From positions 448,001-512,000 of the forward strand of contig CAVYJM010000006.1 of the NCBI GenBank assembly GCA_963768855.1: a stretch of 64,000 nucleotides of DNA, given 5' to 3'. The position numbers were made by a program, and so were the translations under genes. The notes below the pieces were generated by a model that saw only the letters and a program-made list of their open reading frames with translations, had not been told where the DNA came from and did no database searches. This DNA comes from an uncultured Thermoplasmata archaeon. Lineage in GTDB: Archaea; Thermoplasmatota; Thermoplasmata; RBG-16-68-12. This document shows positions 13,881 through 20,373 of the stretch, one piece after another (positions within the stretch are counted from its first letter, which is position 1; each line of letters opens with the position of its first letter).

Positions 13881-13965
13881 GCGAGACATGGTAACGGATT
13901 CGATACTAACCATGATACGCAGGATACAACGCCCTTAATGAGGGACGCCCAACGACTTGTCGAAC

Positions 13966-16900
13966 ATGGACGAGAGCTACCTCGAGTGGCTACGAGTTCT
14001 CCCCGGCTTCTCGACGGAGAAGGCCCGGAAGGTCGCGGAGCGGTTCCCGACCTTCGAGCACCTCCGCGCCGCCATGCCCGAGGAGCTCGCGTCCGTGGAG
14101 GGCCTCACCGCCTACGACCTCGAGGCCCTCCACCGCCTCGTGCGCGATCCCCGGGGCCGCGACGCGGACGGGCATCTCTTCCTCTGTCCGGAGTGCGGCT
14201 CCTTCGCCGGGCCGGCGTCCACGGAGTGCCCCTTCTGCGGCGTCTCCTTCGACGAGGCGGAGCAGGACGCCTCCGTCGAGGAGATCGATGCCTTCCTCAA
14301 GGACGAGGCGGACCCCGCCCTCCTCTGCACGGGCTGCGGCGCGGTCATGGCGCGCGGGTCCACCCGGTGCGACGTCTGCGGGCGCACCTACACCCCGCAG
14401 GAGGCGGCGATCCTTCCCGGCGTCGCCCCCGAGCTCGAGTCGCCTTCCCGGTTCTGCCCCCATTGCGGGGCCTACCTCTCCGCGGAGGTCCCGGAGTGCA
14501 GCGTCTGCGGATTCGACCGCCTCAAAGCTCCCGACGTGGCCGTGAACGGCCACAACGGCAAGGGCCTCGCGGAGGGCTTCCTGAGCCGCTGGCAGCGGGT
14601 CGCGGAGACGCCTGCGTGCACGGAGATGGACCGCCTCGGCGAAGAACTCCTGCAGTACGAGAAGATCCTCGAGGCGGACCCGGCCCTCGAGAAAGTCTGG
14701 GCGAAGCGCGGGCGCGTCCTCGCGAGGATGGGACGCGCGATCGAGGCGGCGGAGAGCCTCTCGAAGGCAGCGGAGCTGGAGCCCGCGAAGGACGAAGAAT
14801 ACCGCCTCGAGGTCCTGGACATACTGAAGGCCAAGGGCGACCTGTCCTTCCTGCCGCCCCGCTGGGGCGAGCCCCGCGCGACCGCCGCCCCGTCCGTCGG
14901 GGATGCGCGCCTGATCGAGGCGCTCCGCCACTACGAGGTCCTCCTCGAGCGGGACCCCGGGATTGTGGTCGCATGGCGGACGAAGGGCGAGATCCTCGAG
15001 CGCCTTGGGCGCGCGGACGAAGCCCGCGTCTGCTTGGAGCGGGCGGATTCCCTCGAGCGCCGGGAAGGCGACCTCCTGAAGGCCCGCGTCTCCGGCCTCC
15101 AGGCGCAAGGCATCGCCCCTTCCGCCTTCTCCCTCTCCGGCCGCACGAACGGCCTCGGTGCGGGTCACGTGAACGGCCGCACGAACGGTCGAACGAACGG
15201 GCGGGTCAACGGGCTCGCGGAAGGGCGCGTGAACGGCCTGACGAACGGCGCCGTGAACGGACTCGGCATGGGCCGCGGGGCGACGAACGGACTCGGTGGC
15301 TTCACGAACGGCCGGACGAACGGGCTCGTGAACGGGAACGGATTCACGAACGGCCGCCGCGGCCGGTACGGGCCCACGCGGATTCCCGCCCAGCCCCACT
15401 GGGCCCGGTCCCTCGTCGGGATCGCGGCGGTCGTGGCCCTCATGGTCCTCGTCCCCGTCCTCGCGAGCATCCTGTCCCCCTCCCCCGGCGCGTACGCGCC
15501 GATCGCGATCGACCACAACTTCGGCGAGTGGAACCGCTTCACGGCGTACGCGAACGCGCCCCCCACGAACCTGAACAACCCGGACATCAACCTCCTCGCG
15601 GTCAAGGTCACCACGGATCCCTCGAACCTCTACGTATACGCGAGGGTCCAGGGGCTCTTCTTCCAGGCCCCGTGGACGAACGGGACGGAGAGCCTCCTCG
15701 TCTTCGTCGACGCTGACCACAACCCGAACACAGGCTACCCCGTCGGGGGCCTGGGCGCGGACCTCCTGGCCGTGGTCACGGGCTGGGATGGCCAGATTCA
15801 GACCATGGGCCGCTACGTGTTCAACGAGACGGGCGTGGTCCGCTCGAACGACTTCCGTCGCTTCCTCTCCGCGGGCTCCGTGGACGCGGCGTTCCTCGGC
15901 GACCAGTCCGAGATGCGCATCCCCCTGGACACGGATCCGGCCCAGGCCCGCTTCCTCGTGTACGCGGCGGACAACCTCGGCAACCGGGACAGCATGGTCG
16001 GTCTGATCCAGCCCGCGCGGCCGACGATCGTCGTGTCCCAGACCACCGTGGCGCCCGACACGGTTCGCAGCCTCTCGAACCCCGTCCTCCGGGTCTCCCT
16101 CTCCGGGATGGGCGGCTCGCCCTCCCTCACCGCGCTCTCCCTCCTGCGACAGGGCACCTCCGCGGACCCCGCTAACGTCTCCCTGTACCAGGATGACGGG
16201 AGCGGGACCTTCAGCGCGAACGACCCGCTCCTCGCCACGGCCTCCTTGTCCACCCCGCTCACGCGCATCCCCCTGAACCTGAGCCTCGTCCGACCCGTGA
16301 CCATGTGGGCGGTCGTTAACTGGACGACCCTCACCGCCAACCGGACGTTCGGGCTCCAGGTCGCCGCGGCCGCGGGCAACGGCACGTCGAGCCTGACGCC
16401 TCCCGACACGAAGCTCGTGTACCTCGGTGGGGCGCCCGCGACGCCCACCGTGGACGGAGCCTTCGGGGACTGGAGCGGCCGGCCCTACGGCGTGGATCCG
16501 CTCGGTGATGTCGTGAACGGCACGAACAGCTACGTCTACAATGCGAACGTGGACCTGCTCGCCGTGGCCGTGGACCGCGCGGCGAACGTGACGGGCTATG
16601 CCCAGGTGGACGGCCGCATGCTCGGCGGCGAGGACATCCCGAACGAGGCGCAGCGGCCGAACCCGACCCCGCCGAACGGGACCCTCAGCAACGTGACCCC
16701 ACCGTACGTCCCCCAGGTCGGGTATGACGTCCTATACGCGTACATCGACGCGGACAACTCCTCCCTTACAGGCCTCCCGGCGTCCTCGGGGACCGCGGAC
16801 TTCGGGTTCGACTACGCCCTCGCGATCACCGGTCGGAACGGCACGGTCTCCTCGAGCGCTCTCTACCGCTACGCCCCAACTGCGAACGCGACGTGGCAGT

Positions 16901-18336
16901 ACGTCCGCCCGATCGCCGCCGCCCTGGACGCGCACCGCGTCGAGTTCGGCGTGGACGCGAGCGCGATGAACCCGTCGGCCGCCTACCGGGTCGTGTTCTA
17001 CTCCACGGACTGGCGGCTCCAGTATGACGTCGCCCTGCCGGACGCCGCCGTGCGCTTCTTCGCCCTCGCGACCCAGGCCGTCGCGAACTCGGTCGTGCTC
17101 AACGAGATCTCCCCGCAGCCGAACCCGGAGTGGGTTGAGGTTGCGAATCCGACTTCCTCGAGCGTGAGTCTGCAAGGGTGGACATTGAACGTCGTGAAGG
17201 CGGGCAAGTTCTCGGTCATCTACACGTTCGGTAACGTCGTCCTAGGTCCCTTCGGATCGGGAACGGAGTACTTCGCCCCACAAGTGGACAAGAACTCCCT
17301 CCCGAACGGACAGAACACGGTCTCTCTGAATAACGGCCCGGTGGTTATGGACCAGACGACGTACGACTCGAGTGTCGGTGGTGCCAAGACGTGGTCCCGC
17401 CTCAAAGACCCAGCCACGGGTCAGCCCATGTCCTCCTACAATGGTGGGAGCGCGTGGTACGTTTCCGCCCTCCCGACGCAAGGCCGGCCAAACGACCGCA
17501 CCCGCCCGATCGTCTCCATCGCAAAGACGGTCAGTGCGGCTCGCGGTACGCCGGGCGATCTGCTGACCTACACGATCTACTTCAACAACACGGGTGACGG
17601 AGTCGCGAAGCTCGTCTGGCTGAACGACACGATGCCGAGCGGCCTCACCTACGTCTCGTCGAGCGTCGCCCCGGCCACGGTCGTCGGTTCCACGGTGAAC
17701 TGGGTCCTGACGAACGTCGCCCCGGGGGCGCACAGCCTCACGGTCTCCGCGGAGATCAACGGCAACGGGGCCGACGGATCGCTCCAGGTGAACCGGGTCG
17801 CCATGACGTATACGGACCAGATCCGGCGGGTCCTCGGGAGCGGCCAGGCGTGGGCGAACGTCACGGTGACGCGGCCCCAGATCACGATCGTGAAGACGGT
17901 CACCCCGGCGAGCGCGACGGCCGGCCAGACGGTCACCTACACGATCTACTACAACAACACGGGCTCGTCCAATGCGGGGACGGTCCACATCGTCGACATC
18001 CTCCCGAGCGGGCTCACGTACACGGGCAGCAACCCGGCCCCGACCGCCGTCAGCAATCGCACCTACTACTGGAACTTCTCGGACGTGACGCCGGGTTCCC
18101 ACAGCATCACGCTGACCGCGGTCGTGAACGCGGGCACGCCCACGGGCAACCTCGTGAACTGGGCGTTCCTGAACTACACGTCCATCCGGGGGTTCGTGCT
18201 CGGAGGCAGCGCCGCGTCCGCGATCGTCGCCATCCCCGAGCTCAGCGACTTCCTCTTCGTCCTTGCGGTGCCCACCCTGATCCTCGGGATGCGGTGGCGG
18301 ATTCGCCGCTCGAAGGGAGAGAGCAAGAAAGGGTGA
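13966..18336 (+). CDS. Giant membrane-spanning protein 1: HhH + Zn ribbons + TPR + (T/V)NG repeats + TM + extracellular DOMON/CBM9-like x2 + lamin-tail-like + DUF11 x2 + PEF-CTERM-like tail
   Basis: 1456 aa from MDESYLEW. LPGFSTEKARK HhH, three CxxC pairs, TPR-like helices, TM about 15409-15474, IDxxFxxW and DxDxxxxTG motifs twice, VVLNEI..PEWVEVAN, two IxKTV..TYTIYxNNTG units, IPEL-hydrophobic-RWRIRR tail. Confidence 0.85.
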   Translation: MDESYLEWLRVLPGFSTEKARKVAERFPTFEHLRAAMPEELASVEGLTAYDLEALHRLVRDPRGRDADGHLFLCPECGSFAGPASTECPFCGVSFDEAEQDASVEEIDAFLKDEADPALLCTGCGAVMARGSTRCDVCGRTYTPQEAAILPGVAPELESPSRFCPHCGAYLSAEVPECSVCGFDRLKAPDVAVNGHNGKGLAEGFLSRWQRVAETPACTEMDRLGEELLQYEKILEADPALEKVWAKRGRVLARMGRAIEAAESLSKAAELEPAKDEEYRLEVLDILKAKGDLSFLPPRWGEPRATAAPSVGDARLIEALRHYEVLLERDPGIVVAWRTKGEILERLGRADEARVCLERADSLERREGDLLKARVSGLQAQGIAPSAFSLSGRTNGLGAGHVNGRTNGRTNGRVNGLAEGRVNGLTNGAVNGLGMGRGATNGLGGFTNGRTNGLVNGNGFTNGRRGRYGPTRIPAQPHWARSLVGIAAVVALMVLVPVLASILSPSPGAYAPIAIDHNFGEWNRFTAYANAPPTNLNNPDINLLAVKVTTDPSNLYVYARVQGLFFQAPWTNGTESLLVFVDADHNPNTGYPVGGLGADLLAVVTGWDGQIQTMGRYVFNETGVVRSNDFRRFLSAGSVDAAFLGDQSEMRIPLDTDPAQARFLVYAADNLGNRDSMVGLIQPARPTIVVSQTTVAPDTVRSLSNPVLRVSLSGMGGSPSLTALSLLRQGTSADPANVSLYQDDGSGTFSANDPLLATASLSTPLTRIPLNLSLVRPVTMWAVVNWTTLTANRTFGLQVAAAAGNGTSSLTPPDTKLVYLGGAPATPTVDGAFGDWSGRPYGVDPLGDVVNGTNSYVYNANVDLLAVAVDRAANVTGYAQVDGRMLGGEDIPNEAQRPNPTPPNGTLSNVTPPYVPQVGYDVLYAYIDADNSSLTGLPASSGTADFGFDYALAITGRNGTVSSSALYRYAPTANATWQYVRPIAAALDAHRVEFGVDASAMNPSAAYRVVFYSTDWRLQYDVALPDAAVRFFALATQAVANSVVLNEISPQPNPEWVEVANPTSSSVSLQGWTLNVVKAGKFSVIYTFGNVVLGPFGSGTEYFAPQVDKNSLPNGQNTVSLNNGPVVMDQTTYDSSVGGAKTWSRLKDPATGQPMSSYNGGSAWYVSALPTQGRPNDRTRPIVSIAKTVSAARGTPGDLLTYTIYFNNTGDGVAKLVWLNDTMPSGLTYVSSSVAPATVVGSTVNWVLTNVAPGAHSLTVSAEINGNGADGSLQVNRVAMTYTDQIRRVLGSGQAWANVTVTRPQITIVKTVTPASATAGQTVTYTIYYNNTGSSNAGTVHIVDILPSGLTYTGSNPAPTAVSNRTYYWNFSDVTPGSHSITLTAVVNAGTPTGNLVNWAFLNYTSIRGFVLGGSAASAIVAIPELSDFLFVLAVPTLILGMRWRIRRSKGESKKG
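15139..15354 (+). repeat. (T/V)NG tetrapeptide repeat tract in giant protein 1
   Basis: GRTNGLGAGHVNGRTNGRTNGRVNGLAEGRVNGLTNGAVNG...FTNGRTNGLVNGNGFTNG, about 13 copies just before the TM helix. Confidence 0.95.
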
Positions 18337-18401
18337 GTGGCTGACAGCGTTCCATGGATCGGCGGCCGTTAGAGCGGCACGGTTCGTCGTCCACCACAAG
18401 G

Positions 18402-18563
18402 ATGGACGGCTAGCGTACCTAGGTCGCCGGCCCAAGCCCCGGTCAGGCCGGGGCGGGCTTCCCACGGGCTCGCGCACCGTAGTACCGCAGGGAACGTGGG
18501 CGGGCTTAACTTCCGGGTTCGGGATGGGACCGGGTGTATCCCCGCCGCTTTGGCCGTCAAACC
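18402..18563 (-). rRNA. rrf: 5S rRNA, stand-alone, with a 36-nt expansion segment
   Basis: Conserved CCCGGTCCCATCCCGAACCCGGAAGTTAAGCCCGCC core, helix I GACGGC/GCCGTC, loop E GGTAC/GGGAA; about 160 nt instead of about 122; ends approximate. Confidence 0.95.
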
Positions 18564-18609
18564 ACTGCTGACGACGCCCAGAGTAAACGCGCTATATCAG
18601 GGTTTTGGT

Positions 18610-19566
18610 CTATGGGTGCGGCAGGACGGCCGTCAGGAAGCCGAGCATCACGTTCCCGACGAAGAACGCGAGGAGGAACCCCGCGAACAGGGGCACGAGG
18701 AACGGGACCTTGGGCTGGACCCACACCCGGTCCGCGCCGGCCGCCCGCAGCTTCGCGACCTCCTCGGACTCGTCCTTCGCGCGGGAGGGGAAGAGAACCG
18801 TCACCCGCTCCCCGTGGCGGTCCACGCGCTCCATGAGCCAGACGTGGGGTGGGAGATGGTCCAGGGGCGCCTTGGTCCCGAACAGCGCCTGCGGGAGCTC
18901 GAAGTCACCCCGGATCGCATTCACGAGCAGATACGCCACGGGGATGGCGAGGAAGAGGACCGCGGCGTTGACGAACACAACCAGGGAGAAGGGGAACAGG
19001 GTCCCCATGGCGTTCGCGACGTTCGAGGGCAGGACGAGGACCGGGAAGGGTGCCAGGTCCGGATAGTAGGGCACGAGCAGGGTTAGGGCCATCATCGCCT
19101 TCGTATCCGCTCCACCCCGGAGCAGGCCCAGTTGGAAGAATCCTTGGTAGACGACGAGCAGGACGGGCATGGATGCCAAGGCCGACAACGGAATCGTTCG
19201 ACTTGGGAGGCCGGCATGCGGGAGGAAGGGGAGTGGGTTCTCCGGGAGCAGCAGCGCCACGACGAAGGAGACGGTCGCGACGCCCAGGACGAGGACCCGG
19301 ACGGGCCGGAGATGGATCCCGTCCTCGTCGAGGATGGGCTTCCCGTAGAACACGGCGAAGAACAGGATGGCCGCAGAGCCCAGCAGAAGCCACCGGTTCA
19401 GACCCGCTTCCATCGCCACGAGGTCGACGGCGAGGACCGCGAGCCCCACGCTCCCGAGCGCGATCCAGACCGGATCCCGGACCCGACGTGTGCGCACGTC
19501 GAGCACCGCCGCGATGGCGAGGAACCCCGCGCCCACGACGAGGCGTGCGACGGAGAACGCGTCCAC
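18610..19566 (-). CDS. A24 family prepilin/preflagellin peptidase (FlaK/PibD-like)
   Basis: AVLDVRTRRV (first Asp), GGADTKAMM (second Asp), C-terminal WVQPKVPFLVPL. Confidence 0.9.
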   Translation of the reverse strand: MDAFSVARLVVGAGFLAIAAVLDVRTRRVRDPVWIALGSVGLAVLAVDLVAMEAGLNRWLLLGSAAILFFAVFYGKPILDEDGIHLRPVRVLVLGVATVSFVVALLLPENPLPFLPHAGLPSRTIPLSALASMPVLLVVYQGFFQLGLLRGGADTKAMMALTLLVPYYPDLAPFPVLVLPSNVANAMGTLFPFSLVVFVNAAVLFLAIPVAYLLVNAIRGDFELPQALFGTKAPLDHLPPHVWLMERVDRHGERVTVLFPSRAKDESEEVAKLRAAGADRVWVQPKVPFLVPLFAGFLLAFFVGNVMLGFLTAVLPHP

Positions 19567-19779
19567 GCGCGCGCATCGGGCGCTCCTTATTTCAAGCGTT
19601 CGACTCGAGAATCTGGCGCGGGGTCGAAGTGATCGTGAAAGCGCGTCCGCTTCGCCTCGTCCCGCGCGGCTGGCATGAGGTCCATCCTCGCGATTCAGTC
19701 GCAAACGACTAAATACCGCCTGTCGAATTGCATCCCGCATCGGGAGGAATCGCGCGGTCCTCCCTGCGGTCCCACTGCC

Positions 19780-20331
19780 ATGAGCGAGCCCCGACGGATG
19801 AAGGTGAAGATCTGCCTCGTCGGCGAGCACGCCGTCGGCAAGACGTCCCTCATCAAGCGGTACGTCCTGAACGAGTACGACGACCGGTACATCGTCACCC
19901 TCGGAGCGAAGGTCTCCAAGAAGGAGATGCTCCTGCAGCCGAAGGGCCGCGACGCCGTCCAGATGGACATGACGATCTGGGACATCATGGGTTCCAAGGG
20001 CTTCCGCGAGCTCCTGCGGGAGGCCTATTTCCACGGCGCCCAGGGAATCCTGGCCGTCGCGGACATCACGCGCTACGACACCCTGGAGGACCTCGACTCG
20101 TGGGTCGAGTCCGTCTTCCGCACGGTCGGGGAGATCCCCGTCGTCTTCACGATCAACAAGATGGACCTGAAGGACCAGGCCGCGTTCAGCGAGGAGCAGG
20201 TCAAGCAGGCCACGGAGGCCTTCGACGCCCCGTACTTCTACGCGTCCGCGAAGACGGGCGAGAATGTGGAGTCCGTGTTCCGCATCCTCGGCGAGACGAT
20301 CGTCAAGGGCGGTCCGTCGGCCGAGGACTGA
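19780..20331 (+). CDS. Rab/Roc-like small GTPase (second paralog)
   Basis: GEHAVGKTS, YIVTLG, WDIMGS, NKMD, SAK. Confidence 0.92.
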   Translation: MSEPRRMKVKICLVGEHAVGKTSLIKRYVLNEYDDRYIVTLGAKVSKKEMLLQPKGRDAVQMDMTIWDIMGSKGFRELLREAYFHGAQGILAVADITRYDTLEDLDSWVESVFRTVGEIPVVFTINKMDLKDQAAFSEEQVKQATEAFDAPYFYASAKTGENVESVFRILGETIVKGGPSAED

Positions 20332-20373
20332 GGCGTTCCATAGCCTCAAGTATCCGCCGCAAATTCTCCGGGC

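Follow-up and report, generated by a model that had tools for sequence, protein, structure and literature searches.

Where does the 5S rRNA gene of an uncultured Thermoplasmata archaeon end, and what is the extra sequence that it carries? The window analysed here, a stretch of 64,000 nucleotides (nt) from contig CAVYJM010000006.1 (assembly GCA_963768855.1, positions 448,001 to 512,000), contains a single 5S rRNA gene, for which the initial annotation had proposed a 36-nt insertion in a 5S of about 160 nt. The gene is very probably a larger unit: 229 nt at 18337-18565 of the minus strand, with its own promoter and a 103-nt segment of the kind known from Halococcus, folded into helices P1 to P4 and kept in the RNA. 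It is a real expanded 5S rRNA gene of the Halococcus type, so that the kind of gene is known and the finding is a large extension of its taxonomic range.

The 5S core was found by a match to Rfam family RF00001 at 18442-18561 (73 bits). This match stops within the insert, inside the 36 nt noticed initially, and the helix I that it implies is mismatched and full of non-standard pairs. The limits of the gene were sought in the 260 nt downstream of the core, compared in the window and 49 relatives. In every one of these sequences a complement of the helix I 5' strand lies some 220-230 nt after the 5S start, and in every one the helix I 3' strand is preceded by GGAAC, the partner of GUUCC in helix V. 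Helix I covaries between families, as exemplified by GGGAAGGG.../...CCCUUCCC, by GCGGUACGACGGC/GCCGUCGGCCGC and by GGGAAGGGUUUGACGGC with GCUGUCAGCCCUUCCC. Taken over 46 distinct sequences from the window's order, pairing in the full structure amounts to 94.4%, and 30 pairs show changes on both sides; when partners are slid by one to three columns, pairing is only 30-46%. The 5S core is kept within this structure, as seen both in the RF00001 match and in helices I-V, which are 94-100% paired with covariation.

The insert begins two bases after the GGGAA of loop E and stops five bases short of the 3' strand of helix I. It thereby interrupts the 3' strand of helix V, and it folds autonomously into P1, which is a short hairpin, and an arm (P2-P3-P4) that is long and irregular. 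Covariation shows this fold, as it does the gene limits. For the insert alone, the hand-set P1-P4 structure is 92.6% paired among 22 close sequences, with 16 pairs changing on both sides, and for 40 sequences that represent 12 family-level groups, aligned under the guidance of the model, the figure is 88.1%, with two-sided changes at 31 of 36 pairs and slid controls at 33-46%. P1, for example, appears in relatives in the compensated forms GCCCUCC/GGAGGGC and GCCCCCC/GGGGGGC, so the hairpin drawn in the initial annotation is real. In the secondary structure P1 and P2 meet the upper and lower parts of helix V, each with covariation support, at a four-way junction, an arrangement that leaves the canonical core intact. 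Two purine-rich internal loops of the insert are conserved, and the UAG at their 5' side and the GAA or UAA at their 3' side hardly vary. Its length, 103 nt in the window, ranges from 97 to 115 nt in relatives. A reading of the internal loops as K-turns was rejected on inspection, as their bases misfit the tandem G-A consensus. An Rfam scan of the insert alone produced only noise and nothing 5S-like, so that an origin by partial duplication of 5S is unsupported.

Table 1. Parts of the expanded 5S rRNA gene and its immediate flanks, in window coordinates (all on the minus strand).
Feature	Position	Strand	Basis and remarks
Expanded 5S rRNA gene, complete, 229 nt	18337..18565	-	Ends +/- 2 nt; helix I closure and compensatory changes
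Helix I 5' strand, GUGGUUUGACGGC	18553..18565	-	Partner 18337-18348; 13 pairs, 97.2% paired (46 sequences), 4 pairs with two-sided changes
Loop E 3' strand and upper helix V 3' strand, GGGAAGC	18457..18463	-	Rfam alignment; alignment A1 pairs 84-115 and 85-114; insert begins directly 3'
Expansion segment, 103 nt	18354..18456	-	In helix V 3' strand
The 36 nt of the initial annotation	18421..18456	-	Insert positions 1-36: P1 hairpin, whole P2 5' strand and first junction base
P1 hairpin, GCCCCGG-CCUGA-CCGGGGC	18436..18454	-	Insert 3-9 with 15-21; 94.9% paired, 4 pairs with two-sided changes
P2 5' strand, UGGGCCGGCGACC	18422..18434	-	Partner 18355-18367; 13 pairs, 9-10 with two-sided changes
P3 5' strand, GGUACG	18414..18419	-	Partner CGUGCC 18376-18381; 98-100% paired
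P4 terminal hairpin	18386..18410	-	Insert 47-56 with 62-71; 10 pairs, 4-7 with two-sided changes
P3 3' strand, CGUGCC	18376..18381	-	Insert 38-43 with 76-81
P2 3' strand, GGCCGCCGAUCCA	18355..18367	-	Insert 23-35 with 90-102
Lower helix V 3' strand, GGAAC	18349..18353	-	Partner GUUCC 18491-18495; 97% paired; two sequences have C-G in place of U-A
Helix I 3' strand, GCUGUCAGCCAC	18337..18348	-	True 3' end of gene; covaries between families
TATA-like box, UGAUAUA	18593..18599	-	Candidate own promoter; A-rich stretch resembling a B recognition element (BRE) 5' of box
Pyrimidine/U-rich tract, UUUCUU	18325..18330	-	Candidate archaeal terminator, just 3' of gene end

The flanks of the gene are also conserved. 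Relatives keep a motif, cGAAAnCCUGAWAUA, at about -28 to -36 from GUGG, and this BRE/TATA motif probably acts as the 5S promoter. Comparable U-rich tracts follow helix I in relatives, and the one in the window may serve as the terminator.

The stretch is present in 20 public sequencing runs belonging to 13 studies of sediment, wetland, soil and groundwater, and six of the 20 are RNA libraries. Contigs from four metatranscriptome libraries, each of a different study, cover 18335-18543, 18339-18514, 18339-18515 and 18353-18527 with no or one mismatch, and each bridges both ends of the insert. The insert is present in RNA-library contigs, and to that extent the initial annotation, which had allowed for its retention, is supported. 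A joint skipping the insert was seen in none of these contigs, though contigs can miss rare forms, and contig cover in the four libraries is zero over the flanks 18250-18334 and 18566-18650. The spans fit a stable RNA with ends near the predicted limits and with the insert in place. The segment would stay in the RNA and, by analogy with Halococcus, it is probably retained in the mature ribosome, most likely as a flexible arm off the central protuberance of the large subunit.

Is the expanded gene the only source of 5S rRNA in its genome? The window's genome gives one 5S match, the expanded one, and the second, normal copy for which the initial annotation had advised a search was not found there. 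Two relatives assembled as single contigs (G097 and G190) likewise have one expanded 5S gene each, and no other 5S type was found in them, so that the expanded form is the only type found in all of these genomes. A further relative (G059) has two 5S genes, both expanded.

In Thermoplasmatota more broadly, the distance from 5S start to helix I closure falls into two size groups, about 121 nt or 212-234 nt. The expanded form is found, patchily, in at least 22 family-level groups. These include all seven sampled families of the window's order (six by sequence; the single copy in f5 was assigned on visual inspection alone), a further six in the class (f10, f13, f14, f21, f22 and f28) and nine families of other classes (f40, f42, f44, f45, f53, f58, f60, f62 and f63, the last by model match alone). 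Many other families have the normal form of about 121 nt. Three families, f45, f40 and f53, are mixed. In f45, loci L149 and L150 are expanded and L151 is normal; in f40 the expanded genome is G215 and the normal one G205, whose state is taken from the RF00001 score only. Since both forms can occur within one family, the switch between them can be recent. In f53, locus L161 (G229:C24) has at the same site a reduced insert of about 30 nt, forming two mini-hairpins, and its relative L162 (G271) has a full one of about 100 nt; the shorter insert looks like a trimmed-down form. On a tree of elongation factor 2 (aEF-2) from 80 genomes, 12-14 changes are required to account for the trait, and a minimum of eight is imposed by the well-supported branches. 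The trait is clustered on the tree, as every one of 500 label shuffles called for more changes. The tree is of a single gene and unrooted, and gains, losses and gene replacement are therefore indistinguishable on it.

A few loci in this survey stand apart. L042 (G041:C87, family f6) is an expanded 5S without nine bases of the conserved loop C region and scores only 45 bits with RF00001; the copy may be damaged, or its assembly may be at fault. L080 (G189:C155) is a bacterial-type 5S in a Thermoplasmata bin that also holds an expanded archaeal 5S (L126), and it probably lies on a contaminating contig. At L145 (G309:C128, f63) two matches to the insert model are found 2.5 kb apart on one contig, with cores too diverged for the nhmmer probe, and G309 may hold two expanded 5S genes. 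The aEF-2 genes of f14, G093, G277 and G303 have open frames of 1050-1270 amino acids (aa), compared with a profile of 720 positions, and most of the matches begin around position 30. Such frames point to an intein, or to some other sizeable insertion, close to the N terminus of the factor in these lineages.

How does the insert relate to those already known? A 5S insertion of the Halococcus type was reportedly described by Luehrsen in 1981. In a survey of expanded archaeal 5S rRNAs, which covered RefSeq genomes and no metagenome-assembled genomes (MAGs), a single type was recorded, with 108 nt between positions 104.1 and 105, in Halococcus, Halalkalicoccus, Halomarina and Halodesulfurarchaeum (Stepanov and Fox 2021, PMC7812874). 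Cryo-electron microscopy of the Halococcus ribosome shows the insert in place, at a four-way junction and as a flexible arm, its secondary structure being described by the authors as not known (Tirumalai 2020, PMC7530397). In the literature we found nothing that links such 5S inserts to Thermoplasmata, and no report of them outside Halobacteria. The initial annotation had placed its insertion at the Halococcus site in a Thermoplasmatota-like lineage, and both points hold: the boundaries are the same, and the named relatives with the same gene beside the same upstream gene (UBA8695, RBG_19FT_COMBO_69_17, RBG_16_67_27 and H43-bin133_1) are Thermoplasmata or RBG-16-type MAGs.

For comparison we used the 5S genes of two Halococcus dombrowskii plasmid records, in which the insert is L115 501-610. 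The insertion point relative to loop E and helix I is the same as in the window, and the length is of the same class, about 100-110 nt (103 in the window and about 108-110 in H. dombrowskii), which nearly doubles the 5S. In each an intact 5S core carries a hairpin and a long arm that give a four-way junction, for the window at the level of secondary structure only, and an independent minimum-energy fold of the Halococcus RNA has P1-P4 in identical order. Also shared are the junction motifs CC-YAGG-nnCGC-A and ACCGnnCCG-U..AACGGC and the status of only 5S type in the genome. Identity between the two inserts is 49%, and distant Thermoplasmatota families are 40-55% identical to each other; of 12 aligned columns conserved at 85% or more, ten are common to the Halococcus insert.

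Two structure-guided covariance models of the insertion only, R2 and R3, were built from Thermoplasmatota alone. R2 matches the H. dombrowskii insert from first to last position with 21.9 bits. R3 does so end to end with 23.5 bits (E 0.0025 in 189 kb), where the best noise reaches 15.2 bits. Held-out families that are true members range from below the 0.05 cutoff (four families) up to 52 bits, a range within which the Halococcus score falls. An earlier model, R1, had been based on a plain MAFFT alignment in which the hairpin and the long helix were misaligned; it kept 12 pairs, gave Halococcus 11.8 bits and was replaced.

The two also differ. The Thermoplasmatota hosts come from sediment, soil and groundwater, unlike the extreme halophiles that carry the known inserts; the sequences are no more than about 45-55% identical, and the terminal hairpin P4 is different. 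The distribution in Thermoplasmatota is far wider and deeper: it takes in many families in several classes, with reduced forms among them. Finally, the Halococcus insert has been seen in the ribosome, whereas the Thermoplasmatota insert is known from genes and RNA-library contigs. Bacterial 5S expansion segments, as in Thermoanaerobacterium, Desulfitobacterium and others, resemble the present one in adding helices to an undisturbed 5S core, but their insertion sites, structures and lengths are other ones and they often coexist with normal copies (PMC7812874). No Rfam or profile likeness between them and the Thermoplasmatota insert was seen.

Several points weigh against our reading of the locus. 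The RNA evidence consists of contigs rather than raw reads, so that true ends, strand and abundance lie beyond it, and an RNA library can hold DNA. Alignments A5 and A6, the 40-sequence alignment included, were fitted to the covariance model, which favours the model's structure. For the Thermoplasmatota lineage, the fold is read from sequences and the placement in the ribosome from the analogy with Halococcus. The Halococcus match is a modest one: a profile of sequence alone, searched against the Halococcus insert and 2000 shuffles, gave no hit, and antisense strands of true members reach 21.6 bits with R2, which means that much of the Halococcus score could reflect shared architecture, not descent.

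These last points bear on whether the insert arose independently, at a permissive site, and came to share site and shape with that of Halococcus by convergence, as the initial annotation supposed. In addition to the failed sequence-only search, the covariance-model score stands just 8 bits above noise, architecture alone can yield 15-21 bits, as the antisense matches show, and the hosts belong to different phyla, with the Halococcus 5S core typically haloarchaeal. Convergence would nevertheless have to produce identical boundaries, a closely similar length (103 vs 108 nt), the same helix order, shared junction motifs and most of the conserved columns, together with a score equal to that of distant true members. 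We regard it as possible but unlikely. Common origin of the Thermoplasmatota and Halococcus inserts, although unproven, is the likelier explanation and a fairly probable one. The segment is of one structural type with the 108-nt Halococcus insertion and probably of shared origin; it is an old element, widespread but patchy in Thermoplasmatota.

A different possibility is removal of the segment after transcription as an intervening sequence, whether a bulge-helix-bulge intron of the tRNA type or a spacer cut out by RNase, leaving the ribosome with a 5S of normal length or in two pieces. Stepanov and Fox raise the removal of inserted fragments before ribosome assembly as a possibility (PMC7812874), and archaeal bulge-helix-bulge introns in tRNA and rRNA genes are likewise structured extra sequence inside a stable RNA gene. 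The boundaries of the 5S insert, however, lack two 3-nt bulges around a 4-bp helix. They form the four-way junction, with the insert starting as two unpaired bases followed by P1 and ending as P2 plus one base. The RNA contigs of four studies are continuous over both junctions and contain no joined form, internal loops and helices are conserved far beyond the needs of a spacer, and the matching Halococcus insert is retained in ribosomes (PMC7530397). Excision thus appears improbable, and retention of the segment in the RNA is to be preferred.

Could the gene instead be as the initial annotation drew it, a 5S of about 160 nt ending near 18400? The insertion does lie where it was placed, directly after GGGAAGC, but the 36 nt are only the first third of a 103-nt segment, and their removal does not restore a 5S of about 124 nt. 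The two pairings on which that model depends, GACGGC with GCCGUC as helix I and CCU with AGG as the resumed helix V, can indeed form, being 86-98% pairable in the order-level alignment. The former (3' strand at about 18405-18410) is 86% pairable without any compensatory change; one of its pairs is broken in 18 of 46 sequences, and the 6-bp pseudo-helix is broken in other families. Both segments covary with other partners, AGG through its two Gs in P3 and GCCGUC within the P4 hairpin. The true helix I 3' strand, some 65 nt further downstream, makes 13 pairs with covariation, and RNA contigs continue to 18335-18339, so that we consider the shorter model very improbable and its two helices probably fortuitous, and the mature length is predicted to be about 229 nt. 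A minimum-energy fold of the 171-nt span of that model was no better than shuffles (z -0.96) and had the wrong helix I. As for CCU in the helix V 5' strand (18491-18489) and the near-invariant AGG (18421-18419), they are pairable in 97.8% of cells (A1 columns 81-83 with 152-154) with zero covariation. The two Gs also pair in P3. CCU/AGG may be fortuitous, or else a contact at the junction, whether alternative or tertiary.

A pseudogene in decay, or an artefact of assembly, as might be feared of a metagenome bin with 7.7% contamination, is scarcely credible here in view of the same architecture in more than 80 independent genomes (single-contig ones included), the compensatory changes, the conserved motif at the putative promoter, the RNA-library cover and its being the sole 5S found.

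The neighbourhood of the 229-nt gene can be described briefly. Directly upstream, on the same strand (18610-20349), is a gene whose 579-aa product has an archaeal peptidase A24 C-terminal domain, and a peptidase A24-domain gene also adjoins the 5S gene in six named relatives (among loci L051-L057). On the opposite strand, 13957-18336 encodes a protein of 1459 aa that combines zinc ribbons and TPR repeats with a lamin-tail domain and DUF11 repeats; the stop codon of this frame abuts the 3' end of the 5S gene. The sole tRNA of the window is a tRNA-Thr (anticodon UGU) at 355-427 of the plus strand.

Large archaeal 5S expansions have so far been described only in four haloarchaeal genera, where they were regarded as a curiosity and associated with horizontal transfer between these genera. 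The same module is now placed in many uncultured, non-halophilic lineages of Thermoplasmatota, as the only 5S. Its presence explains why Rfam/Infernal truncates these 5S genes and gives them low scores. The dozens of diverged sequences define the fold of the module by covariation, and the conserved unpaired bases thereby identified are candidates for binding tests. We may speculate, tentatively, that the Halococcus insertion is not a haloarchaeal invention at all. It would descend from an early Thermoplasmatota module that suffered many losses and trimmings and reached a few genera of haloarchaea laterally, through recombination into the 5S core that these already had; with its two conserved UAG/GAA-type internal loops it would serve on the central protuberance as a working arm to which a protein or another RNA docks, and would not be a neutral passenger. 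The occurrence in Thermoplasmatota itself changes the picture of the age and origin of this module.
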